64,000 nt of DNA from Dehalococcoidia bacterium (GCA_965200555.1 OZ241365.1:371719-435718); one strand, 5' to 3'; positions 38,774 to 51,107 are shown, counted from the first letter of the stretch. Numbers and translations are program-made. The notes: generated by a model not told the origin, from the sequence alone.

Positions 38774-39700
38774 ATGACGACGAGCCCCCTGCTCGGTACG
38801 GCGTTCGCCGGGAAGGCGCACGAGGGGAAGGTGCGCGAGCTGTACCGCCTCGGCGGCGGACGGCTGCTGATGGTCGCGACCGACCGCATCTCCACCTACG
38901 ACGTGGTGATGCCGACCGGCGTGCCGCGCAAGGGCGAGGTGCTGACACGGCTGTCGGCGTTCTGGTTCGCGCGCACCTCGGACGTGGTGCCCAACCACAT
39001 GATCGCCGTCGTCGAGGCCGGCGACCGCCTCGACCTCGGCGGCGAGAGCGTCGAGGCTGGCGAGGCCGGGCTGGCGGGGCGCTCGATGATCGTGCGCGAG
39101 GCGCAGCCGCTGCCCGTCGAGTGCGTCGTGCGCGGCTACCTCGCGGGCTCCGGCTGGAGCGAGTACCAACGCTCCGGCGAGGTCTGCGGCGTGCCGCTGC
39201 CGGAGGGCCTGACCGAGTCGCAGCGGCTGCCGGAGCCGATCTTCACCCCCACCACCAAGGCCGAGACCGGCCACGACCTGCCGATGACCTTCGCCGAGGT
39301 CGAGGCGCTGATCGGCGAGGAGACGGCGAACGCCGTGCGCCTGCGCTCGCTCGCGCTCTACCGCTACGCCGCTGGCGTCGCCGAGGAGCGCGGCATCGTC
39401 ATCGCCGACACCAAGTTCGAGTTCGGCCTGATCGAAGGCGAGGTGACGCTGATCGACGAGGCGCTCACGCCCGACTCCTCGCGCTTCTGGCCCCTCGGCG
39501 GCTACGAGGCGGGCCGCGCCCAGCCCTCGTTCGACAAGCAGTACGTGCGCGACTGGGCCAGCGCCACCGGCTGGAACCGCGAGCCTCCCGCCCCCGAACT
39601 CCCGCCCGAGGTCGTCGCCGCCAGCAGCGAGCGGTACCTCGAGGCCTACCGCGCGCTGACCGGCGAGCCGCTGCCCCCCCCGCCCGGCGCGCCGCAGTGA
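38774..39700 (+). CDS. purC: SAICAR synthase
   Basis: GKVRELY, ATDRISTYD, VECVVRGYLAGSG, IADTKFEFG, TPDSSRFW, SFDKQ. Confidence 0.98.
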   Translation: MTTSPLLGTAFAGKAHEGKVRELYRLGGGRLLMVATDRISTYDVVMPTGVPRKGEVLTRLSAFWFARTSDVVPNHMIAVVEAGDRLDLGGESVEAGEAGLAGRSMIVREAQPLPVECVVRGYLAGSGWSEYQRSGEVCGVPLPEGLTESQRLPEPIFTPTTKAETGHDLPMTFAEVEALIGEETANAVRLRSLALYRYAAGVAEERGIVIADTKFEFGLIEGEVTLIDEALTPDSSRFWPLGGYEAGRAQPSFDKQYVRDWASATGWNREPPAPELPPEVVAASSERYLEAYRALTGEPLPPPPGAPQ

Positions 39701-39981
39701 CGCTGTGGCTCGCGCGCATCGGCGTGATGCTGAAGCCTGCGGTCAACGACCCGCAGGGCCTCGCCGTCGCCGGCGGCCTGCGCGACCTCGGCTACGGCGG
39801 CGTGCGCGGGGTGCGCGTCGGCAAGCGCATCGAGGTCACGCTCGAAGCCCCCGACCGCGCCGCCGCCGAGGACGCCGCGCGCGGCATGTGCGAGCGCCTG
39901 CTCGCCAACCCCGTGATCGAGGACTTCGCCTTCGGCGTGGAGCCCGCCCCTGACGGCGCGCCCCCGCCGCCCGCCCCCTGA
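39697..39981 (+). CDS. purS: FGAM synthase subunit PurS
   Basis: LKPAVNDPQG...VRVGK...MCERLLANPVIEDF; GTG overlaps the purC stop. Confidence 0.95.
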   Translation: MTLWLARIGVMLKPAVNDPQGLAVAGGLRDLGYGGVRGVRVGKRIEVTLEAPDRAAAEDAARGMCERLLANPVIEDFAFGVEPAPDGAPPPPAP

Positions 39982-40026
39982 ACGGGACGAGGCGGGCCGC
40001 CTGCGGCGAAGCCCGCCACGGATCGG

Positions 40027-41893
40027 GTTTCGACCTCGTCCAGCCCGAAGGCCGGGGCGCTACGCTCCGAACTCGTTTCAATCCTCGCCCCGCCCGAGGG
40101 CGAGGCGCTACCTGGCGGTTGCCGGCGGACACGGCGGCGCGCGCAGCGGGTTTCAATCCTCGCCCCGCCCGAGGGCGAGGCGCTACCTCGATGCTCAAGG
40201 CGAAGGAGGACGGCGATGGCGGCGTTTCAATCCTCGCCCCGCCCGAGGGCGAGGCGCTACTCGTAGAACAGGTCGTCGATGTCCACGTTCGCGATGGAGT
40301 TTCAATCCTCGCCCCGCCCGAGGGCGAGGCGCTACTACGGACGGTTGAAGGTCGCCTTCACGCTACCACCAGTTTCAATCCTCGCCCCGCCCGAGGGCGA
40401 GGCGCTACCGACGAACAGCTCGTCGGTGGAGATCACCGTGATGTTTCAATCCTCGCCCCGCCCGAGGGCGAGGCGCTACCCGCCGAGGGGGACCACGTCG
40501 CGCGGGCCAGCCTGCCGGTTTCAATCCTCGCCCCGCCCGAGGGCGAGGCGCTACCGGGGGTGACTGAGCGCACCATCGGGCGCGCCAAGCAGGGTTTCAA
40601 TCCTCGCCCCGCCCGAGGGCGAGGCGCTACCCGACATCCCGCCCGTCCCGCCCGTCCCGTCCGTTGCGGTTTCAATCCTCGCCCCGCCCGAGGGCGAGGC
40701 GCTACGGCTACGGCTACGGCCACCTGCGGCGTATCGCCGAAGTTTCAATCCTCGCCCCGCCCGAGGGCGAGGCGCTACAAGGACAGCTCGCCGTCCGCCT
40801 CGTGCGTCAGCCAGTTTCAATCCTCGCCCCGCCCGAGGGCGAGGCGCTACGAGCAGGCGGCGGCGATCCTCGACGACGCCGCCGCGTTTCAATCCTCGCC
40901 CCGCCCGAGGGCGAGGCGCTACCAAGCGCGGGACGCCGCTCTTCACCGGCGACGACCTGTTTCAATCCTCGCCCCGCCCGAGGGCGAGGCGCTACGGGTA
41001 GCAGATCGGCTCGGTCATGCGGCGCCTCCCTCGTTTCAATCCTCGCCCCGCCCGAGGGCGAGGCGCTACGCGCCCCGTGGGGCGCTCCGGCGCTCCACCG
41101 CCTCGTTTCAATCCTCGCCCCGCCCGAGGGCGAGGCGCTACGCGCCCCGTGGGGCGCTCCGGCGCTCCACCGCCTCGTTTCAATCCTCGCCCCGCCCGAG
41201 GGCGAGGCGCTACTAGCATCGGCGGGCGCTCGCACGGGGCGGGCGCGAACGGTTTCAATCCTCGCCCCGCCCGAGGGCGAGGCGCTACAAGTGCTCAAGG
41301 GCTGGCAGCAGTCGCGCAAGATCAAGTTTCAATCCTCGCCCCGCCCGAGGGCGAGGCGCTACAGGCGGCGACGGCCTCGCGGGCCGGCCCTCGACTACGA
41401 GTTTCAATCCTCGCCCCGCCCGAGGGCGAGGCGCTACCCTACTCGGCGCGCGTCATGAACCTCGGCGTCCACGTGTTTCAATCCTCGCCCCGCCCGAGGG
41501 CGAGGCGCTACATCTGCGCGGCGAACGCCGCCTGCTTGTTCTCGCCGCGGCCCCGGTTTCAATCCTCGCCCCGCCCGAGGGCGAGGCGCTACCCGTGCTC
41601 ACCCCCGGCGGGGGTGCTCTACCTCGGAACCGTTTCAATCCTCGCCCCGCCCGAGGGCGAGGCGCTACCCGGTAGAGGGAAGGGAGACACCCCGAATGAC
41701 CGGTCAGTTTCAATCCTCGCCCCGCCCGAGGGCGAGGCGCTACGCGACCGGCTGCGCGCGATGTAGAGGAGGCCGGAGATGTTTCAATCCTCGCCCCGCC
41801 CGAGGGCGAGGCGCTACCCGCACGCGCGGCGCGTCCACAGCCGGAGGGGGACGCGAGTTTCAATCCTCGCCCCGCCCGAGGGCGAGGCGCTAC
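40027..41893 (-). CRISPR. Type I-C CRISPR array: 25 copies of a 37-bp repeat (40075-41893), 24 spacers, plus a degenerate trailer repeat at 40027-40063
   Basis: Repeat on the minus strand GTAGCGCCTCGCCCTCGGGCGGGGCGAGGATTGAAAC (palindromic, ATTGAAAC end); spacers about 34-44 bp. Confidence 0.99.
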
Positions 41894-42068
41894 CTCCGCC
41901 CATCTCTTTCGCGATGGGCAGCGCGCAGCGATCATCCCACGATCGCGGATTCCTGTCACCCGGCCGCCGCTCCGCTGTTCGCGGAACCGCTGCGCGAGGG
42001 AATACGAGTGCTCCCGGCTGCGCGGACCTGACGGGGATGCGTGATCCCCGGAGGTTCGCGCACGCGGC
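41894..42068 (-). promoter_or_regulatory. CRISPR leader
   Basis: Non-coding segment between cas2 and the first repeat; the degenerate repeat is at the opposite end of the array. Confidence 0.75.
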
Positions 42069-42359
42069 TCAGAACACGAGGGAGCCGCGCGGATCGAAGG
42101 ACGGCTGGACGCCGAACATGCGGAGGTGCCGGCTCAGCGGCTCGCGCAGACGGTAGATGCGGACGCTGTCTTCGGTCTCGTCCATCTCCTCCCGCAGCCG
42201 CGCGACGAGGCGCTCCATGTCCATCTCGTTGAGCACGCACTCGAACACCGATTTCTGCACGCGCTGGCCGTACGCCTCGCAGGTCCGGGCGACGCGGCGC
42301 AGCCGCCTCCGCCCGGCCGCGTCGTCCGTCGCCACGTCGTACGCCACGAGAATCTCCAC
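42069..42359 (-). CDS. cas2: CRISPR-associated endonuclease Cas2
   Basis: ILVAYDV...RRLRRVARTCEAYGQRVQKSVFEC...DSVRIYRL. Confidence 0.96.
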   Translation of the reverse strand: MEILVAYDVATDDAAGRRRLRRVARTCEAYGQRVQKSVFECVLNEMDMERLVARLREEMDETEDSVRIYRLREPLSRHLRMFGVQPSFDPRGSLVF

Positions 42360-42373
42360 GGGCCGTGCTCCCC

Positions 42374-43405
42374 TCAGCGGGCGATGTACGGCAGGTAGTG
42401 CCGCAGATCGCCGCGAAGATGCCGCGCCAGCAGACGCGCCTGCACGTGCGGCACGAGACCCAGCGGCACTCGCTGCTCGAGCAGGCGGTGCCGGACGGCG
42501 CGCTCCTTGCGTTTCGCGTAGGCGGCGAGCGCGGCGCGGCGTCCGTCGTCGGTGAGGCTCACGGCTCCGCCGGGCGTGACCTCGAAGTGTGCGGCCCGTA
42601 TCTGGCGCCGGTTGATCATCCGCAGGGCGAGCCGGTCGGCGACGGCGGGGCGCAGCTCCTCCATGAGGTCGAGCGCCAGCGCGGGGCGTCCGGGGCGGAG
42701 GCCGTGCAGGTACCCGACCTGGGGATCGAGGCCCACGCCCTCGAGCGCCGCCTCGCACTCGGAACGCACCAGCGCGTAGAAGAACGAAAGCAGCGCGTTG
42801 GCGCGGTCGCGCGGCGGCCTGCGGCTGCGGCCGTCGGGAGCGAGCGGGGACGGGCGCTCGCGCACCATGCGGCCGAACGCCGCGAAGTAGGTGCGCGCGG
42901 CAAGGCCCTCCGCGCCGCGCAGCGCGTCGAGGTCGGAAGCGGCGGGCAGGCCGCCGAGGATTCCGTCCAGCTGCCGGGAAGCGTCGCGGAGCGCGCGTTC
43001 GTCCTCCTCGTCCGGGTGGTCGCGGGCCGCGCGCATGAGCAGCAGCCGCGCGTTCTGCACCTTGCCGGCGACGAACTGCCGGGCGATCGCGAGCGGCCGT
43101 CCGGGATCGTCGAGGGCGCGGTGCTGGGCGCGCCTCAGCAGCACGTTGCCGAGGGAGCGGCCCGCGAGCCTGGCGCGGAAGCGCCCCCGCCGCGTAAGCC
43201 AGACGACGTCGCGTCCGTCCTCGGCGCAGCGGTGGATCAGCGGCGTGGTCACCGTGACCCGTCCGAAGACCGCGATGGCCTGGAGCCGCAGGAGCGGCAG
43301 GCGGGCGCGGGTCTCGCCGTCGGCCACGACGCGCACCGTGTCGTGATCGAGCCTCAGGAGCGCGTCCTGGCTCGTCACGTAGAGCGTGTTCAGCAGCTCA
43401 TGCAT
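42374..43405 (-). CDS. cas1: Cas1, type I-C
   Basis: LLNTLYVT, GNVLLRRAQ, LRGAEG, GLDPQVGYLH, ALALDLMEELR. Confidence 0.98.
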   Translation of the reverse strand: MHELLNTLYVTSQDALLRLDHDTVRVVADGETRARLPLLRLQAIAVFGRVTVTTPLIHRCAEDGRDVVWLTRRGRFRARLAGRSLGNVLLRRAQHRALDDPGRPLAIARQFVAGKVQNARLLLMRAARDHPDEEDERALRDASRQLDGILGGLPAASDLDALRGAEGLAARTYFAAFGRMVRERPSPLAPDGRSRRPPRDRANALLSFFYALVRSECEAALEGVGLDPQVGYLHGLRPGRPALALDLMEELRPAVADRLALRMINRRQIRAAHFEVTPGGAVSLTDDGRRAALAAYAKRKERAVRHRLLEQRVPLGLVPHVQARLLARHLRGDLRHYLPYIAR

Positions 43406-44084
43406 CGTCGTCCTCGTCGTCGCCGTCCGGCTCCAGCGGGCGGAAGAGCGATCCCTGCAGGCCGCGCAGCCGCGACGGCCGCGCGGCCACGCCGGGCAGG
43501 CAGGCGTGGACGAGCGAGCAGGGCGGGCAGCGGGCGTCGTCGACCGCGGGCGGCAGGCGCTGCCCGCGGATCTGGTCGCGCACCTCCCGCACCAGCGTTT
43601 CCGTCCGCCGGCGCAGTTCGCCGCCGAAGGGCACCGGGTGGCGCCGCCGCTCGGCGTGCGAGTAGATCGCCCCCTCCGGCACCTCCGCGCCCAGCATCTC
43701 CTCGAGGCAGAGCGCCTGCGCGCAGAGATGGATGTCGGCGTGCGGGGGGCGCCGCCGCCCGACCTTGTACTCGGCGGGAAACGGCGGGCGCCCGGGGCGC
43801 AATTCGACGACGTCGGCCTTGCCGCGCAGTCCGAGCCGCTCCGACCAGAGCGGGATGCCGCGCAGCGTCCGCACGCCGGGCCGCGTCTCCCGTTCCCCGG
43901 CGTCCACCCGCTCGTGGGCGATGCGCCCGCGCACGGTGAAGACGTTCTCCTCGAAGGTCTGCTCGACGTGGATCAGCGCGCACTGGCGCGGGCAGTAGGA
44001 GTAGTGCTCGAGCGCCGAGATCGGCACGTCGGGCGGCGTCTCCCCGCTCCAGTCCGGCGGCGGGACGGCTTCGGAGCCGATCAC
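43398..44084 (-). CDS. cas4: Cas4
   Basis: ISALEHYSYCPRQCALIH, GKADVVE, EYK, CPPCSLVHAC. Confidence 0.97.
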   Translation of the reverse strand: MIGSEAVPPPDWSGETPPDVPISALEHYSYCPRQCALIHVEQTFEENVFTVRGRIAHERVDAGERETRPGVRTLRGIPLWSERLGLRGKADVVELRPGRPPFPAEYKVGRRRPPHADIHLCAQALCLEEMLGAEVPEGAIYSHAERRRHPVPFGGELRRRTETLVREVRDQIRGQRLPPAVDDARCPPCSLVHACLPGVAARPSRLRGLQGSLFRPLEPDGDDEDDDA

Positions 44085-44099
44085 GTTCGCCTCCCTGTC

Positions 44100-44150
44100 G
44101 CGGGATGGACGGCGGCGCGACCGGACAAGGCCGGCCGCCGTCCGTCCCGC
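44100..44150. terminator. 17-bp inverted repeat between cas7 and cas4
   Basis: GCGGGATGGACGGCGGC / GCCGCCGTCCGTCCCGC; no clear U-tract, so it may be a stabilising hairpin. Confidence 0.5.
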
Positions 44151-44163
44151 CTGCGGATGTGCG

Positions 44164-45066
44164 TTATCCGACGAGCCGGGTGAGTTCCACGCCGTTCGGC
44201 ATGCGCTCGCCGCCGATCGTCACCTCGTAGTCGCCGAAGGCGCGCGGCGGGGACGTCCCGTCGCGGCGGGAGGCGGCGACGCGGTCGAAGAGATCGCTGG
44301 CGGGGGCGTTGCCGAGGCGGTTTTCGTGGCTGAACACGTACAGGCCGCGGCAGGCCACCAGACCGCGCGAAGCCGAGCGGTCGAGGTCCCACATCATCCG
44401 CAGCGCGAGCCAGAACAGATCGAGGTCGGCCGCGTCCGCTCCGGTCTGCTGCGCGAAGTGCGGGTTGAAGAAGCCGTGGGCGCGGTACAGCGCGTAGGGG
44501 ACGGTCGCCTTGCGGCCCAGCGTGCCGTGGGTCGGCGCCTGCTGCTCGTCCCCGTCGCGCTGCTCCTGCCGCTCGCCGGCGTTCTCGAGCGCCACGCGGC
44601 CGATCGTGTGGTCCGTCGGGAAGACGGGATCGACGGAGCGGGCGAAGGTGAACTGCACCGGGCCGCGCACCTGTCCCGCGTTGCGTTCCTTCATCGACAT
44701 CACCGCGCCGAACATGCGGATGTCCCAGAACTCGTCGCACATCCACTCGCGGGCGGTGCGCGGTTCGGGGTCGGAGCCGTTCGCGCGCTCGCCGAACACG
44801 CGCCCGCGCGCGTCGGTCAGGTAGCTTTCGCGCTGGACGTAGATCTTGTGGCGCCGCTCCTCGCCGCGCGCGGCGTCGACGTAGTCGCGCACCTTGCGCT
44901 TGATCGCCACGTCGGTGACGAGGCCGTGCATCGTCTCGGGGTCGACGCGCGGGGCGTTGCCGGCGTCCGGGTCGCCGTTGGGGTTGCCGTCCTGCACGTC
45001 GAACAGCAGCACGAAGTCGTGGCGGCGGTCCGGGTCGGTGTGGACGGCGGCCGTCGTGGTGGTCAT
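44164..45066 (-). CDS. cas7c: Cas7c (Csd2)
   Basis: DGNPNGDPDAGNAPRVDPET, KRKVRDYV, FWDIRMFGAV, GQVRGPVQ. Confidence 0.97.
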   Translation of the reverse strand: MTTTTAAVHTDPDRRHDFVLLFDVQDGNPNGDPDAGNAPRVDPETMHGLVTDVAIKRKVRDYVDAARGEERRHKIYVQRESYLTDARGRVFGERANGSDPEPRTAREWMCDEFWDIRMFGAVMSMKERNAGQVRGPVQFTFARSVDPVFPTDHTIGRVALENAGERQEQRDGDEQQAPTHGTLGRKATVPYALYRAHGFFNPHFAQQTGADAADLDLFWLALRMMWDLDRSASRGLVACRGLYVFSHENRLGNAPASDLFDRVAASRRDGTSPPRAFGDYEVTIGGERMPNGVELTRLVG

Positions 45067-45161
45067 CGGAGTCCTTCCGTTCGCTCGATCTTCCGTCGCC
45101 CGTTTTCGGGGCGCATGGCCGGCGGCGAGGCCTCCGGCGCAGGGATTGGGTCCGTCCGCGC

Positions 45162-46976
45162 TCAGGACACCTGGGCCGCGGTCTCCTTTCCGGGCGCTTC
45201 GCCGTTGGACCGGGCCGCCGCCTCGGCGCGGTTCGCGGCGCGCTGGTGGTAGTAGCCGAGCACGAACTCGCCCTGCTCCCGGGGGGCGAGCACGCCGGGG
45301 AACTCGCCGGAGATGCGATCCGCGATCTCCTCGATCCGCCGCTGGATGGCGTGGTACGCCGCGCGCTTGCGCTTGTCCTTATCCCGCTCGAGCTTCGAGA
45401 GGTGCGGCTGCGCCCGCTCGATCAGCGGCCCGAAGACCGAGCCGGGGGCGGTCGAGGCCTTGCCGAAGTAGCGATCGGCGATCGTCGCGTTGACGCGCCC
45501 GAGGGCCGTCCGCTGCGCGTTCTCCAGTTCGGCGAACAGCCGCCCGCAGTGGTAGGCGGTGCTCGCCGATTCCTCGTTCAGGCTCACCAGCGTGTCCTCC
45601 CCGTCGTGTTCGCCGTGCTGCGAACGCAGCACCATCTTGATCAGCGCCGCGTGGCTGCGGCGCACTTCGCGATCCGCCTGCGCGCGCCGCACGGCGCGGA
45701 TCAGCAGATCGTCCGGCAGCGGCCCACCAGTCAGGAAACCCTCCAGCAGCGCGCGGGGCACGGCCGCCGGCAGGCCGCGCAGCTCGCGCACCGTCGCGCC
45801 GGCGAGCTCGTACAGCCCCAGCCGCCGGGCGCCGGTCCAGGGCTGCTCGCCGGACGCCCCCACGATCTTCTGGCGGGCGTACCACCGCGCCGCGTTGCGC
45901 GCCGCCTCGCCGACGGTGACCGTGTGCCAGCTCCGCACCGCCGCGCGTCCGCCCGCGGCCGACAGCCCGACGGCATGGAGCTGGTCCTGCCGGTCGCCGT
46001 CCAGCGGCGGCGGGGCCTTGCCGGAGCGGACGCCGAACTGCGCCGCGAAGTCCTGCGGCGTCGCGTCCGGCCGCTCCGCGGCCCATGCGTCGAGTTCGTC
46101 GAGTTCGTCGAGTTCGTCGCCGAAGTCGCCGGGGCTGGTGAGCAGCCCGAACGCGCGGAATTCGCGCTCCTCGCGCGTCCACGCGACGAACGCCATGTCG
46201 CCGACGCGCACGGCGTCCTCCGACGCCAGCAGCGCGTTGAGGCCCTTCGTGAAGCGTTCGCCGCAGTCGCCGCAGACGGGAGCGATCAGCGACTCCTCGA
46301 GGCCGTACGAGGAGAACGCATCGGTGTTCGCCGAAATCATCGCAGTTCCTGCGGTCTGGCCGCCGGGGATGCGCTTGATCTTCTCCTTCAGCCGCCGCTC
46401 CGCCGGCCGTTCCCGGGCGCAGACGAGGCATTGCAGCACGTCGGCGGCCTCGCCCCCGGAGCCGTTGTGCTCCGCCCAGAACGCCCGCACCGAGGGCAGA
46501 TCGGCGACCGCCACGCCGCCGGCGTTGAAGTCGATCGAGGCGGAGGCGTCGAATTCCCCGTCCCCATCCACCTTCAACGCCTCGAGCGGCGACGACTCGA
46601 GGAAGCGCAGCACCGCGCCGACGGCGGGCTCCTCCGTCCGCCGGTGGCATTCGGCCAGCAGTTCGAGGTACGCGGCGTGGCGCCGTCCGGCGCGCCCGGC
46701 CTGCTTCCCGTCGTCCGGGTCCGCGACGTAGCCGAGGGTGTACTCGGCGGTGTCGGCCAGCAGCAGCGGACGGGTCGCCGAGGAGCGCGCCACCGTGGGC
46801 ACGGAGCGGCGCACGCCCCGCCGCTGCGCCCGGCTGTCGGCGATCGCGGTGTCCTCCATGCCCTTGAGATCGCCCTCGGCGGTCAGGTGGATGCGGTAGC
46901 GGACCGGGCGTTCGGAGTAGAGCGGCGGCGGCAGGTCGAGGCGCTCCGCGTAGTCGCGGAGCAGCTGCAGCAGCAT
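45162..46976 (-). CDS. cas8c: Cas8c (Csd1)
   Basis: MLLQLL start, LLADTAEY, CLVC...AFSSYG, AYHCGRLFA, FVLGYYHQ. Confidence 0.95.
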   Translation of the reverse strand: MLLQLLRDYAERLDLPPPLYSERPVRYRIHLTAEGDLKGMEDTAIADSRAQRRGVRRSVPTVARSSATRPLLLADTAEYTLGYVADPDDGKQAGRAGRRHAAYLELLAECHRRTEEPAVGAVLRFLESSPLEALKVDGDGEFDASASIDFNAGGVAVADLPSVRAFWAEHNGSGGEAADVLQCLVCARERPAERRLKEKIKRIPGGQTAGTAMISANTDAFSSYGLEESLIAPVCGDCGERFTKGLNALLASEDAVRVGDMAFVAWTREEREFRAFGLLTSPGDFGDELDELDELDAWAAERPDATPQDFAAQFGVRSGKAPPPLDGDRQDQLHAVGLSAAGGRAAVRSWHTVTVGEAARNAARWYARQKIVGASGEQPWTGARRLGLYELAGATVRELRGLPAAVPRALLEGFLTGGPLPDDLLIRAVRRAQADREVRRSHAALIKMVLRSQHGEHDGEDTLVSLNEESASTAYHCGRLFAELENAQRTALGRVNATIADRYFGKASTAPGSVFGPLIERAQPHLSKLERDKDKRKRAAYHAIQRRIEEIADRISGEFPGVLAPREQGEFVLGYYHQRAANRAEAAARSNGEAPGKETAAQVS

Positions 46977-47620
46977 CAGGCGGCCTCCCTTTCGAGGCGC
47001 GGCACGCGGAGCACGCCGTCCTCGAGCGCCGCGTCGAAGAACCGGGGCTCGCCGCTCCCGTCCGCGGCGAACTCGACCGAATGCAGCATCAGGCCGAACT
47101 GCTCCGTGACGGGAATCGGCCGTTCGCCGTCGCCGGGTTCGCGGAAGTCGGCGGCGAACTCGCGGCAGCCGAGGTAGGGCCGCGCGAAGCACTGCCCGCG
47201 CGCGACGCGGCGCCGGAACTGGTCGCGGTACTTCGCCGGGTCGTCCCCGCCGGGCGCGACTTCGGCCTGCGCGCGGATGACGTAGTCGACGTCGCGCAGC
47301 GCCAGCGTGTGGCGCCGCTCGCGGTGATCGGCGACGTAGTAGCCGCCCGTCCCGCCGCCGCGCGCCCAGCCGCGCGCGCGTTGCTCGGTCTGGCGATCGC
47401 GGATCTCGTTGCGCCGGATCGAGACGTGGCGGATCGGCGCGAGCACGAGGATCTCCTCGATGCGCCAGCGGAACTGCGGCTTCCAGAAGATCGATTCGAG
47501 CACGCCGCGCGCCGCGGACGGCGTCATCACCGGGTAGCTGACGCGCTCCACCTTCATCTCGGGCCGAGTGAAGCACGCCAGCGGTCCGCTGACCCTGACC
47601 TCCACGGGGTTCATCGCCAT
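46976..47620 (-). CDS. cas5c: Cas5c (Cas5d), crRNA-processing endoribonuclease
   Basis: ACFTRPEMKVERVSYPVMTPSAARG, PYLGCREF; AAGGAGG RBS. Confidence 0.97.
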   Translation of the reverse strand: MAMNPVEVRVSGPLACFTRPEMKVERVSYPVMTPSAARGVLESIFWKPQFRWRIEEILVLAPIRHVSIRRNEIRDRQTEQRARGWARGGGTGGYYVADHRERRHTLALRDVDYVIRAQAEVAPGGDDPAKYRDQFRRRVARGQCFARPYLGCREFAADFREPGDGERPIPVTEQFGLMLHSVEFAADGSGEPRFFDAALEDGVLRVPRLEREAA

Positions 47621-47629
47621 CGTCGCCTC

Positions 47630-47726
47630 CTTTCGTGCGCCGCCCTGTTGGTGCAGGGCGCGACGATAGCAAGCACTTGCGGAACAACGCTTCAACCCTT
47701 CGCCGTGCGGCGCTTGAGGGGGACAC
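47630..47726 (-). ncRNA. CRISPR-like mini-array (two degenerate repeats and a 24-nt spacer), CreR/CreA-like regulatory RNA
   Basis: psiR1 ends GGCGAAGGGTTGAAGC; spacer GTTGTTCCGCAAGTGCTTGCTATC; psiR2 GTCGCGCCCTG...CAGGGCG...GAAAG; spacer resembles 47806-47827. Confidence 0.7.
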
Positions 47727-47796
47727 CCGCTCCGTGCTGGCTGCACGGCCTGGGTGTCCACCCATGACTTCTTTCTACTACACGACCAGCGAGAGC

Positions 47797-47830
47797 ACAA
47801 GATACAATAGCAGCAGTGCGGGACAAGTAA
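47797..47830 (-). promoter_or_regulatory. Probable promoter of the cas5-cas8-cas7 operon and target of the mini-array spacer
   Basis: AT-rich; TTGTCC-N16-TATCTT, or extended -10 TGCTATTGT. Confidence 0.55.
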
Positions 47831-47867
47831 GATCAAGACGCCGCGGCGCCCAAGCCGCAGATCGCAT

Positions 47868-50099
47868 CTAGACGATGAACTCGTCGACCGAGGGTTCGCC
47901 CAGCACGATCCCGCGCCCCGCGATCCCGCCGTCGTAGCGGCCGAGCCACTCGTAGACGCCGAGACCGCCGATCTCGCTCAGCAGTCCGCGCGGCTGCCGG
48001 CGCAGCGGCGAGGCGTAGAACGGTACGACGTACGGCTGGAGCCGGCGGAGCGCCGGGAAGCCGCCCTGTCCCCTCTGCGCGGCGTCGCGCAGCTCGCCGA
48101 GCAGCTCCCCGATCCGCTCCTCCTCGCCGCCGTAGCGCACGACGACCGGGATCGTCGGATCGATCATCCGGAACCTGTCAGCGACCTTGGGGAAGTTGAA
48201 CTGCTCGCGCAGCGGCTGGATGCCCGCGCCGTCGGTCTCCGTCCCTTCGATCAGCCGCTCGAAGTAGCGGCGCTGGACGCCGAGGTCGTCGAGGCGCATT
48301 TCGGCGCCCGCTTCCGCGAGTGCGATCAGGGCCTGTTGTTTGCCCTGCTTGTACCCAGGCGGCAGCGGCGACGGCTCCGCCGGCTCGAAGACGACGACGC
48401 GGCCCGGCTCCGGCATCCGGCCGTTGCGGTTGCAGCGGCCCGCCGCCTGCACGATCGAGTCGAGCGGGGCGACGGCGCGCAGCACGAGGGGGAAGTCGAT
48501 GTCCACGCCCGCCTCGACCACCTGCGTCGAAACCAGCAGGCACGGCTCGCCCGCATCGAGGCGGCGCTCGACCTCTTCCAGCACGGCGCGGCGATGCGCT
48601 CCGCAGAGCAGCGTCGAGAGATGGAGCGCGCCGTCTTCGCCGGCGGCTTCCAGCGCGCCGAGGAGCGCAAGCGCGTCGCTCTTGGTGTTGACGATCGCGA
48701 GCGCCTGTCCCTGCGGTCCGTCCAGCATCAGGCGGGCGGCATCGTCCCACGCGAGCGGCGCGGCGGGCCGCTCGTACTCGACGCGCCGCAGCGCCCCGAA
48801 CCAGCGCTCCGGCCGCGGCACGATGTCGCGGGCGTCCGCGTCGGCGAACTCCGGAACGGCCTCGAACGCGGGCTGCGTCGCCGTCGAGAGCACGACGGTC
48901 GTGCGGTAGTGCGTGGCGAGGCCGCGCAGGGCGTCGAGGATCGGCGCCAGGAGCTTGCGCGGCAGGCCCTGCGCCTCGTCGAGGATCAGGACGCTGTTGG
49001 CGATCCGGTGCAGTTTCCGCATCCGCCCCGGCCGCCGCTCGAAGAGGCTCTCGAACAGCTGCACGGTCGTCGTGACCACGACGGGCGCGTCCCAGTTCTC
49101 GGCCGCCAGCTTCGCCCAGCCCGGCGCGGACGCGCCGCTCCGTTCGCCTTCGATCAGGTCGCCGGCGTTGCTGTGGTGCTCCAGCACGGCGGGGGCGGCG
49201 TCGCCCGCGCGTTCGAGGATGTCACGCATGGTCTTCGCGGTCTGCGTGGTGATGCTCGTGAACGGCACGGCGACGATCACGCGCCGCTGACCGTGCCGCA
49301 TGGCGTGCCGCAGCGCGAACGCCATGCCCGATCGCGTCTTGCCTCCGCCGGTGGGCGCCGTGAGGCGGAAGAAGCCGGGCGGCTCTCCGGCCGCTTCGAG
49401 GCAGGAGCGGTAGATCGCGTCGCGGGCCTCGTCGACCGGGCCGCCCGCTCCCCCGATCCGCCGCTGGCCGTCCTCAAGGCGGCTCCACAGCTCGGCGAGG
49501 TCCGGAGCGGCGTGCGCCCGCGCGCGTCGCCGTTCCGGCGCGAAGTGCGCCTCCGTGTCGAGCCAGTCCGCGTCCACGAGGCACGAGAACAGCATCCGCA
49601 ACAGCAGGTCTGCTTCGAGCTCCGTGCCGGCGATGCCGGCGGGCGGCGCGAAGTACGGCGCTTTCACGAACTGGTCTCCCAGCAGGCTCCGGGCCGCATC
49701 GCGCGCCTCGCGCAGCTCGCCGTCGCGCCCGTCGATCTGATCGCCGACCGCGCCCCGCATGTCCTGCGGCGTGGACAGCCCGCCGTGGTGTCCGTGCAGC
49801 ACGAGCGGGAAATGCTCGCCCAGATGCTTCTTCGCGATCACCGCGCCCGCGGTCTTGTGGTCCGGACCGCTGCCGCGCCGCGCCTTGCCCGCTTCGCTGC
49901 GGACGAGGTACTGCTGCCAGTCGTCCGCGAGCTTGCCGACGTCGTGCCAGAGGCCGAGCAGCCGTCCGTACTCCGCCATGCCGAACTCGCCCGCGAAGGC
50001 CTCCGCGAGCGCGGCGGTCCCCTCGGCGTGCGCGATCCACTCGTGCCGTTCGCCGTCGCCGTTGGCCGAGTGCGCCCACGGCCCGTTCGTCGCGCTCAT
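47868..50099 (-). CDS. cas3: Cas3 HD nuclease-helicase
   Basis: WHDVGK, HHGGL, LVDADWLD, APTGGGKT, ILDEAQ, QAAGRCNR; ATG 50099 follows AAGGAG. Confidence 0.97.
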   Translation of the reverse strand: MSATNGPWAHSANGDGERHEWIAHAEGTAALAEAFAGEFGMAEYGRLLGLWHDVGKLADDWQQYLVRSEAGKARRGSGPDHKTAGAVIAKKHLGEHFPLVLHGHHGGLSTPQDMRGAVGDQIDGRDGELREARDAARSLLGDQFVKAPYFAPPAGIAGTELEADLLLRMLFSCLVDADWLDTEAHFAPERRRARAHAAPDLAELWSRLEDGQRRIGGAGGPVDEARDAIYRSCLEAAGEPPGFFRLTAPTGGGKTRSGMAFALRHAMRHGQRRVIVAVPFTSITTQTAKTMRDILERAGDAAPAVLEHHSNAGDLIEGERSGASAPGWAKLAAENWDAPVVVTTTVQLFESLFERRPGRMRKLHRIANSVLILDEAQGLPRKLLAPILDALRGLATHYRTTVVLSTATQPAFEAVPEFADADARDIVPRPERWFGALRRVEYERPAAPLAWDDAARLMLDGPQGQALAIVNTKSDALALLGALEAAGEDGALHLSTLLCGAHRRAVLEEVERRLDAGEPCLLVSTQVVEAGVDIDFPLVLRAVAPLDSIVQAAGRCNRNGRMPEPGRVVVFEPAEPSPLPPGYKQGKQQALIALAEAGAEMRLDDLGVQRRYFERLIEGTETDGAGIQPLREQFNFPKVADRFRMIDPTIPVVVRYGGEEERIGELLGELRDAAQRGQGGFPALRRLQPYVVPFYASPLRRQPRGLLSEIGGLGVYEWLGRYDGGIAGRGIVLGEPSVDEFIV

Positions 50100-50391
50100 C
50101 CCGCTCCTTCGCTTTGCGTTCCGTACGCCGCGGTCGATGGCAAACCCCACGCCGCTACCGCTGGGCTTCCTTGCGGCTGGCTGCCGCCTTGTGTTCCTCG
50201 ACTTCGCGGCGAAGCGACGCCACTGATACAAGTACCGTACGCCCTGATTGGTGCTGATATCAAACGCATGTTCCGCAACCTCGCGGCGGAGCGACGCCGC
50301 CCCTTTCCGCCAAGCGGCTTCCGCGCCCTTCCTCTGCCGGCTCTCCCGCAGTCTCAGTTCCGCGAGCACCAGCGCCCTCTCGCGATCCACA

Positions 50392-50511
50392 CGGGTCGAG
50401 GTAGACGAGGTCGACCGAGCCCGCCTCGATGCGGCGCGCGACCTCGACGCCGTCGGCGAGGTGGACGACGCCGCGGACGCCGCCGGCCGGTGCGGGCGCG
50501 GGGGCGGTCAT
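50392..50511 (-). pseudogene. 5' fragment of a site-specific (N4/N6) DNA methyltransferase
   Basis: VVHLADGVEV...GSVDLVYLDP, truncated within the DPP(Y/F) motif at the edge of the cas locus; ATG coupled to the hisB stop. Confidence 0.6.
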
Positions 50512-51107
50512 GCGGTGAGCGTGCCTTTGGTGCTGGGGGGCTCGCCGGGGATGCGGGGGTCGGGGCGCGTGGCCGCGTCGAGGGCGCGCGCGAGCGCCTT
50601 GAAGGCGGCCTCGGCGACGTGGTGGTCGTTGGCGCCCGCCAGCTGGCGGACGTGGAGGGCGACGCGCGCGCCCTGCGCGAAGCTGTGCAGCGCGTGGCCG
50701 ATCATCTGCGTCGGCGCGCCGCCGATGCGCTCCCCCGCCCACGCGAGGCCGATCTCCGCCCAGGGCCGTCCCGAGCAGTCCACCACGGCCTGCACCAGCG
50801 CCTCGTCGAGCGGCACGGTCGCGTCGCCCATCCGCACGATGCCGGCGCGCTCGCCCAGCGCCTCGTCGAAGGCCGCGCCGAGGGCCAGCGCGCAGTCCTC
50901 GATGGTGTGGTGCTCGTCGACGTGGAGGTCGCCCTCGCAGCCGAGTTCGAGGTCGAAGCGGCCGTGCTTCGCGAAGGCCTCGAGCAGGTGGTCGAGGAAG
51001 CCGACGCCGGTCGCGATCCTCGACCGGCCCGCGCCGTCGACGTCGAGTTCGACGCGGATGCGGGTCTCGGCGGTGGCGCGCTCCAGCGTCGCGCGGCGTG
51101 CGGTCAT
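50508..51107 (-). CDS. hisB: Imidazoleglycerol-phosphate dehydratase
   Basis: TGVGFLDHLL, GDLHVDEHHTIED, NDHHVAEAAFKA, PSTKG. Confidence 0.97.
   Translation of the reverse strand: MTARRATLERATAETRIRVELDVDGAGRSRIATGVGFLDHLLEAFAKHGRFDLELGCEGDLHVDEHHTIEDCALALGAAFDEALGERAGIVRMGDATVPLDEALVQAVVDCSGRPWAEIGLAWAGERIGGAPTQMIGHALHSFAQGARVALHVRQLAGANDHHVAEAAFKALARALDAATRPDPRIPGEPPSTKGTLTA

Follow-up and report, generated by a model that had tools for sequence, protein, structure and literature searches.

In a type I-C CRISPR-Cas locus, the 247 nt that separate the cas3 stop codon from the start of cas5c probably hold a regulatory repeat unit of the CreR/crlRNA type, through which the Cascade genes of the locus would be placed under negative feedback, a reading to which we give a probability of about 0.68. 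The element had been put forward in a preliminary description as a type I-C autorepression circuit, and comparative evidence, from guide-target covariation in related loci and from a census of type I-C loci, argues for such a function. A stretch of intergenic DNA in an uncultured Chloroflexota-like organism would in this way gain an annotation, namely that of a guide RNA likely setting the level of Cascade.

The type I-C locus and its intergenic element

A complete type I-C system lies on the minus strand of the window, the 64-kb stretch of DNA analyzed here, with its genes in the order cas3, cas5c, cas8c, cas7, cas4, cas1c, and cas2, followed by the CRISPR array (Table 1). NCBIfam matches for all cas genes of the locus were above or near the curated cut-offs, and the cas5c product also matched PDB Cas5 chains named 'pre-crRNA processing endonuclease' (E ~1e-46). 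The coordinates given for cas3 are the limits of its open reading frame, and the real start is probably located further downstream. The array repeat, GTAGCGCCTCGCCCTCGGGCGGGGCGAGGATTGAAAC, alternates with spacers of ~35–38 nt and is recognized by the Rfam model CRISPR-DR9 with 43.6 bits per array repeat and 21.1 bits for the terminal repeat. It forms a hairpin of 9 bp with an 11-nt tail, AGGATTGAAAC, behind it, and repeat tails of this type are described, in the available part of a recent preprint, as the 5' handle remaining on type I-C crRNAs once Cas5c has cleaved (10.1101/2024.12.27.630466). Two adjacent spacers of the array are identical (41033-41213), with the duplicated unit at 41105-41141 and 41177-41213.

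Table 1. Features of the type I-C locus and of the element upstream of cas5c, in window coordinates.
Feature	Coordinates	Strand	Basis or detail
cas3, HD nuclease and helicase	47868..50390	-	NCBIfam cas3_core and cas3_HD; ORF list
Low-GC stretch, putative cas5c-cas8c-cas7 promoter region	47770..47840	-	GC profile, 47-53% GC
TTA flank, 5' of target, PAM position	47828..47830	-	Read from the sequence
Predicted crlRNA target (protospacer, non-target strand)	47806..47827	-	Only positions 2-5 and 7-11 pair ungapped
psiR1, degenerate repeat	47689..47726	-	4-bp stem CGCC/GGCG (47712-47701), extra A at 47700, 11-nt handle
psiS, spacer-like segment	47665..47688	-	24 nt, versus ~35-38 nt in true spacers
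psiR2	47630..47664	-	Start GTCGCGCC agrees with repeat start at 7/8; 7-bp hairpin 47660-47641, then 11-nt tail
cas5c, type I-C pre-crRNA endonuclease	46976..47620	-	TIGR01876, 150.9 bits
cas8c	45162..46988	-	TIGR01863, 350.8 bits
cas7 (Csd2)	44164..45066	-	TIGR02589, 296 bits
cas4, cas1c, and cas2	42069..44084	-	TIGR00372, TIGR03640, TIGR01573
CRISPR array	40027..41893	-	25 identical 37-nt repeats (41893-40075) and a degenerate terminal repeat (40063-40027)

The element occupies the gap between cas3 and cas5c, inside the cas locus and upstream of the effector genes, and is composed of a degenerate repeat (psiR1), a spacer-like segment directly after it (psiS), and a second repeat-like part (psiR2); a direct check located all strings quoted in the preliminary description on the minus strand, at the coordinates it had given. 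The 5'-handle nucleotides are kept in weakened form, given that the psiR1 handle AGGGTTGAAGC (47699-47689) is identical to the true handle at 9/11 positions and is preceded by an extra A. The match previously proposed between the psiR1 tail GGCGAAGGGTTGAAGC and GGCGA-GGATTGAAAC indeed comprises 13 positions, with that one extra A. Compared with the true repeat, psiR1 retains the AGCGCC of the stem base and the GGCGA behind the stem, while the inner stem is missing, and psiR1 of the related locus L018 shows a comparable truncation relative to its own repeat. Allowing at most 2 mismatches, the 11-nt handle occurs outside the array at two sites of the window, 47689-47699 and 36267, with 1.8 expected on both strands, and the former is the sole non-array match on its own strand. 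This handle-like 11-mer is in sense orientation, and the guide that follows begins 68 nt before the cas5c ATG. The fold of psiR1 was no better than that of shuffled sequences (z = 0.1), and its minimum-energy fold pairs part of the handle. Taken before any comparison with other loci, the handle and hairpin features are suggestive, not compelling.

The hairpin that had been described in psiR2 is real (-16.8 kcal/mol, z = -2.9) and ends 20 nt upstream of the cas5c start codon, with 11 nt preceding the ribosome-binding site. A different conclusion applies to the 'GAAAG end', which had been read as part of this second repeat: from 47637 down, the psiR2 tail is the conserved cas5c leader and ribosome-binding stretch, kept in strains that lack the element. 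The GAAAG tail is common to the leader of all strain variants, and therefore it is probably ribosome-binding context and probably not a handle remnant.

We also considered whether psiR1 and psiR2 form a canonical CRISPR array and rejected this, since they are unlike one another and unlike the 37-nt repeat, enclose a spacer of only 24 nt, and were matched by neither type of model. An Rfam scan of 39500-51000 with E up to 1 returned the true array only, and a covariance model made with 29 true repeats (37 nt) from related type I-C loci gave no match to psiR1 or psiR2 in 10 kb with E up to 10. The same 29-repeat model scored psiR1 of other loci at 28.3 (L165), 24.8 (L177), 21.2 (L098), 19.9 (L175), and 18.9 bits (L018), and that of L024 at only 6.9 bits.

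The target proposed for the guide is located in the lowest-GC part of the intergenic region (47–53% GC), which holds TGCTATTGT, an extended -10-like word picked by eye. A strict sigma-70 promoter scan returned 0 sites, and the minus strand had no terminator-like site, the only one seen being on the other strand. From sequence only, we infer that 47840-47770 is the promoter region and that the target site could carry the '-35/-10' label of the preliminary description.

Predicted guide and target in the window, in relatives, and in other type I-C loci

Read from the first base past the handle, the guide GTTGTTCCGCAA meets CTTGTCCCGCAC at 47827, 139 nt upstream of the spacer and at -207 from cas5c. 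The alignment reported earlier for this site was reproduced in full, with 18 identities out of 24 and two 1-nt gaps, ungapped mismatches within the first 12 guide positions at 1, 6, and 12, and TTA as the 5' flank. The gapped 18/24 alignment is nevertheless correct yet weak evidence alone, as its score was equalled by 42/5000 shuffled spacers and 111/3000 random 24-mers of the window, and it may reflect shared ancestry and not pairing. Without gaps, no pairing extends past position 11 and the maximum is 9 bp; pairing beyond position 11 is unlikely to count for Cascade.

The PAM-proximal end of the guide, in register with the handle, is more informative when scored over the first 12 positions minus 6 and 12, which leaves 10 scored positions, of which the window site matches 9. 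These seed thresholds (12-nt seed, 6 and 12 ignored, TTN) were set after the first cases were known and are in line with published practice. Even when no PAM is demanded, the window site has the best seed of the 430-nt region, a result that shuffled spacers reach at a fraction of 0.026, and with TTN required 0/2000 shuffled spacers reach a 9/10 seed. Among random 24-nt pseudo-spacers drawn from the cas5c-upstream regions of 156 loci, 26/6240 reach 9/10 together with TTN. A search of the whole genome for the 24-nt guide with at most 3 mismatches found no copy besides psiS itself. The canonical type I-C PAM is TTC according to the available parts of two sources (10.1101/2022.06.15.496202; PMC8406640), and TTA is reported beside TTC as PAM at the targets of type I-C repeat units (10.1101/2024.12.27.630466, as available in part).

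For comparison, type I-C loci were gathered with the Cas5c of the window at the level of the order and of the class, together with 80 loci from genome contigs and 80 from metagenome contigs. The closest relatives were L018 (genome G032, 75–77% Cas5c identity) and L024 (79%); Cas5c searches of the order (99 genomes) and of the class (401 genomes) found none closer than L018, and the metagenome scan gave no Cas5c identity above 66%. In a DNA search of the 401-nt region against 61 relatives, the flanking genes were common to G032 only, and the intergenic part remained unaligned. In L018 and L024 alike, cas3 and cas5c are separated by a long gap, in which a handle-like word is located at -81 and -80 from the ATG, respectively (-68 in the window), and a strong hairpin immediately precedes the ribosome-binding site. 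In L018, the spacer TCTATGGTTGCG matches TCTATCGTGGCT, which is preceded by TTC and located at -228, and in L024 the spacer AACGTACTCCGC matches AATGTGCTCCGC, likewise preceded by TTC and located at -221. The seed is 9/10 in both, with a single mismatch at position 9 and position 3, respectively, and each site remains the best seed of its own region when the PAM constraint is dropped. The intergenic regions of the window, L018, and L024 align with one another only at the handle, and spacers and targets are unrelated across the three loci. The covariation that had been suggested as a check on homologous cas3-cas5 regions was thus found, with the same layout holding distinct matching pairs in the two relatives.

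Another locus, L022 from a genome of the window's own genus (G008), carries a repeat-like unit ~147 nt upstream of cas5c on the opposite strand, with a handle that has 1 mismatch and 14.9 bits in the repeat model. No target was found for this unit in the scanned region, and a TTGACA / TATCTT promoter-like pair lies on its cas5c side.

The same logic was then applied as a census to 156 type I-C loci in which 250 nt or more were available upstream of cas5c, a locus being counted as positive when a seed of at least 9/10 was combined with a TTN flank. Targets were present for 12 of the 14 candidates whose handle had 0 mismatches to GGATTGAAAC, for 3 of the 15 with 1 mismatch, and for 2 of the 59 with 2 mismatches (the window and L101); the two perfect handles that lacked a target are located at the edge of the scanned region. 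L101 (2-mismatch handle, TTA, 42 nt away) was treated as a likely chance match and not counted. This left 16/156 positive loci, 8 with the unit in sense orientation before cas5c and 8 with a divergent unit (Burkholderiales-type loci), so that beyond the window, L018, and L024 there were 13 more type I-C loci with the same order of handle, seed, and TTN. The positives represent ~10 independent guide-target families.

The best seed found without constraint was the same TTN-flanked site in 16/16 positives, and when the guide start was moved by 1–6 nt only 0–4/16 remained. Mismatches across guide positions 1–18 fell mostly at 6, 12, and 18, which is the Cascade signature. The flank was TTC in 14, TTT in 1, and TTA in 2 (the window and L101) of the 17 loci that include L101. 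A further 16 class-level loci yielded one more match, L194. The apparent targets of L197 and L198 overlap psiR1 itself through a tandem duplication and were therefore left out of the count; in these two loci, what follows a perfect handle is a second copy of the unit's own 5' part, which mimics a target, a trap for automated searches.

The eight divergent loci (L065, L073, L081, L089, L098, L102, L175, and L177) carry a half-repeat with a perfect handle ~250–300 nt upstream of cas5c on the opposite strand. Their guides match a TTC-flanked site 56–80 nt upstream of the unit at 9–10/10 seed positions. In these Burkholderiales-type loci, -10-like words lie ahead of the unit, and the target, just upstream of the unit, overlaps them. 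Since the guide matches a site upstream of its own unit, the unit would act as a repressor of its own promoter and probably also of the divergent cas promoter.

Other arrangements were also observed. L032 has a perfect handle and no second repeat, with the handle ending 44 nt before the cas5c ATG and the guide region reaching the ribosome-binding site; its target has a TTT flank and matches at 14/15 over 18 nt, on the other strand, where it spans a clear promoter (TTGACA / TATTAT). If Cascade assembled on such a leader, it could mask translation as well. In L059 and L172, where the unit is ~214–224 nt upstream of cas5c, a TTC-flanked site on the opposite strand matches at all scored positions of the first 18; the mismatches in L059 are at 6 and 18, and L172 has a further one at 12. 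The L059 site adjoins a TTGAAA -35-like word.

Proposed feedback loop, strain variation, and alternative readings

In the proposed loop, transcription from the low-GC stretch 47840-47770, or read-through from cas3, would yield an RNA with psiR1, psiS, and psiR2 in its leader before cas5c-cas8c-cas7. Cas5c would cut this leader at the 3' base of the psiR1 hairpin, as well as at or in the psiR2 hairpin, and free an RNA of ~59 nt composed of a handle of 11–12 nt, the guide of 24 nt, and a hairpin at the 3' end. After loading with this RNA, Cascade would bind the TTA-flanked site at 47827-47806, paired at guide positions 2–5 and 7–11 only, and these ~9 bp would permit binding without Cas3 recruitment or cleavage. 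Once bound, the complex would obstruct RNA polymerase, so that guide and Cascade genes would both be transcribed less, closing a negative feedback loop. Given that only ~79 nt separate the target from the unit, the regulated genes could only be cas5c-8c-7 and the guide itself, and because the guide would sit in the leader of the operon that it represses, guide and Cascade proteins would be throttled as one transcript. By analogy with other systems, the loop might respond to crRNA load or to anti-CRISPRs. The analysis itself shows the sequence features, with their register and statistical excess, and the covariation of guides with targets among relatives, whereas promoter position, RNA processing, Cascade loading, and repression are predicted from these.

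The window copy is the weakest of its clade, with a handle of 9/11, an extra A, a truncated hairpin, a TTA PAM, a mismatch at position 1, and no covariance-model match, and its TTA flank is the only one among loci with the recognized architecture of solitary repeat units (SRUs). By handle quality alone, it belongs to the 2-mismatch class (2/59 with target), which is mostly noise. Given this weak or partly decayed look, repression may be mild; mild repression and ongoing decay are both live possibilities for this copy. The foremost alternative takes decay to its end. According to it, the element is a relic descended from a working CreR-type unit such as those of L018 and L024, which has lost binding and repression and is tolerated since cas5c-8c-7 can be expressed anyway. 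The 9/11 handle with its extra A, the 4-bp stem, the TTA flank, the position-1 mismatch, the 9-bp pairing, and the failure of the covariance model all fit a relic, as does the absence of the block from close strains, which carry a 39-nt linker instead (runs X7 and X10). On the other hand, neither the seed register nor the TTN flank has been lost, the cas genes and the array are intact, and TTA is itself a PAM reported for type I-C repeat-unit targets in the available part of 10.1101/2024.12.27.630466. Moreover, L018 and L024 each have one seed mismatch (positions 9 and 3), so that seeds in this clade may normally be imperfect. We therefore regard a relic as rather unlikely, if a reading to be taken seriously.

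The strain variants were obtained by aligning contigs of four public runs to window 47000-48400; among 24 runs listed for the sequence, none is an RNA run. The linker of X7 and X10 takes the place of 47638-47871, which extends from the cas3 stop to the psiR2 foot, and in run X6 the same slot holds other blocks of 183 or 145 letters. In run X5, a contig aligns to the 526 nt of 47256-47781 with 21 differences. Of the adjacent As at 47699/47700 it has only one, which results in the canonical 11-nt handle spacing, and ~86 nt including the target were unaligned at 80%, so that pairing may not be kept in this strain. The cas3-cas5c spacer appears as a replacement hot spot among related strains (X6, X7, and X10). 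Given that the whole block 47638-47871 is swapped or absent in the variants, target and repeat unit come and go together. It is conceivable, and we propose it only tentatively, that target, psiR1, psiS, and the psiR2 hairpin make up one swappable cassette of ~234 bp, which fits precisely into the slot from the cas3 stop to the conserved cas5c leader. If blocks of the X6 type were alternative guide-target pairs, populations of this organism would be switching the Cascade autoregulation module between strains. Such switching could be an answer to Cracr, phage RNAs that hijack regulatory circuits of this kind; viral mimics aimed at I-C circuits are reported in the available part of 10.1101/2024.10.29.618823. 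Our viral scan for handle plus seed gave 28 matches, a number consistent with chance, and no phage mimic of the window guide was found among them. The viral match with a perfect handle, L224, was rejected, as it sits within a 1522-aa ORF of a repetitive gene.

Control could also act at the RNA level only, with Cas5c binding or cutting the hairpins of its own mRNA leader and thereby altering stability or translation, in which case the DNA match would be irrelevant. The sense orientation of the unit in the presumed leader and the psiR2 hairpin ending 20 nt before the start codon would suit such control, and so would L032, with its handle just 44 nt from the ATG and no second repeat. This alternative is improbable, as it leaves unexplained the TTN-flanked DNA matches directly after the handle in 16/16 loci, with their mismatches at 6, 12, and 18; RNA-level control could coexist with DNA-level repression.

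Still less probable is an addiction module similar to CreTA, in which the guide would repress a gene for a small toxic RNA or peptide at 47805-47727 rather than the cas genes themselves. CreA RNAs are of one kind with CreR RNAs (10.1101/2023.03.10.532045, available in part), ~79 nt lie between the target and psiR1, and an ATG at 47765 follows a purine-rich word. However, this word is only 2 nt from the ATG, whose frame is open for 867 codons and runs through cas5c/cas8c out of frame, as is typical of high-GC DNA. A stretch of 79 nt is too small for a cargo gene and contains no closed small ORF, and no conserved sequence was found at this position in the relatives. Finally, a chance resemblance in a GC-rich intergenic region, with which the 111/3000 random 24-mers reaching the gapped score and the lack of Rfam and covariance-model matches to psiR1 and psiR2 would agree, is disfavored to a similar degree by the joint rarity of a handle and an in-register TTN seed (26/6240) and by the occurrence of this layout, with pairs that covary, in L018 and L024.

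Relation to known regulatory guide RNAs

The likenesses and differences drawn below hold for those parts of the cited sources that were available. With CreTA, the pair of CreA antitoxin RNA and CreT toxin, the window element shares a crRNA-like guide and, as proposed, Cascade binding without cleavage (10.1101/2023.03.10.532045). It differs in that the window has no candidate toxin gene between target and guide, a tiny toxic RNA being improbable.

The mini-arrays of Shmakov et al. (PMC10120712) are similar in that they are repeat-like sequences in long intergenic regions beside cas3, with a short spacer, mismatches at 6 and 12, and a target in a predicted promoter. Of 1206 I-C loci in that study, a fraction of 0.34 had a repeat-like sequence and 0.07 a mini-array; for I-C, the available part of the paper gives counts only, whereas it details I-B, I-D, I-E, I-F1, and V-A.

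Experiments have demonstrated autorepression by CreR in I-B, I-E, and V-A systems, and the same source mentions manually identified I-C examples (10.1101/2023.03.10.532045, in the part available). As in CreR, the window has a degenerate mini-CRISPR in a cas intergenic region, with a psiR1 that carries 5'-handle nucleotides and a psiR2 that carries the 3' part, and the guide partly matches a site with a putative PAM at or near the putative effector promoter; there is no toxin partner, and autorepression is the proposed function. The CreR of S. enterica has 15 consecutive matches and a canonical PAM, in contrast to 9 matches and TTA in the window copy. Our literature search found no paper on this particular clade, and the supplementary lists of the CreR and type I-C preprints may already include cargo-less I-C units.

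The closest counterparts are the type I-C SRUs located directly before cas5c, whose RNAs have an 11-nt 5' handle and a 3' hairpin, are processed in a Cas5c-dependent manner, and repress a reporter promoter ~21-fold (10.1101/2024.12.27.630466, as available in part). Their targets are promoter sites flanked by TTC or TTA, with a mismatch at position 6 in the case shown there. Like these SRUs, the window unit lies between cas3 and cas5c, in sense orientation and just before cas5c, and it combines an 11-nt 5' handle, a 3' hairpin, an upstream target, a putative PAM within the TTC/TTA range, and partial PAM-proximal pairing with a position-6 mismatch. Some SRUs with psiR1 and psiR2 yield an RNA of 57 nt, and ~59 nt are predicted for the window; SmuCas5c is reported, in a source available in part, to tolerate changed sequence downstream of its cut. 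The differences concern host, strength, and gene content. SRUs are described from Neisseria, and the window belongs to a Chloroflexota-like MAG; pairing amounts to 9 bp in the window versus 16 bp in the Nezha SRU case, and the window handle is degenerate. SRUs come after cargo defense genes (Nezha, Gabija, 'CRISIS') with the target before the cargo, whereas the window unit is cargo-less.

The mechanism is therefore already known, including in type I-C directly before cas5c, and the window element opens no new one; it is a cargo-less version of the SRU design. The census adds that such units are common and clearly recognizable upstream of cas5c in many lineages, which supports autoregulation of the CreR type for type I-C generally, and it offers a search rule for units that ordinary array finders overlook, namely a handle, then an in-register seed, then a TTN flank.
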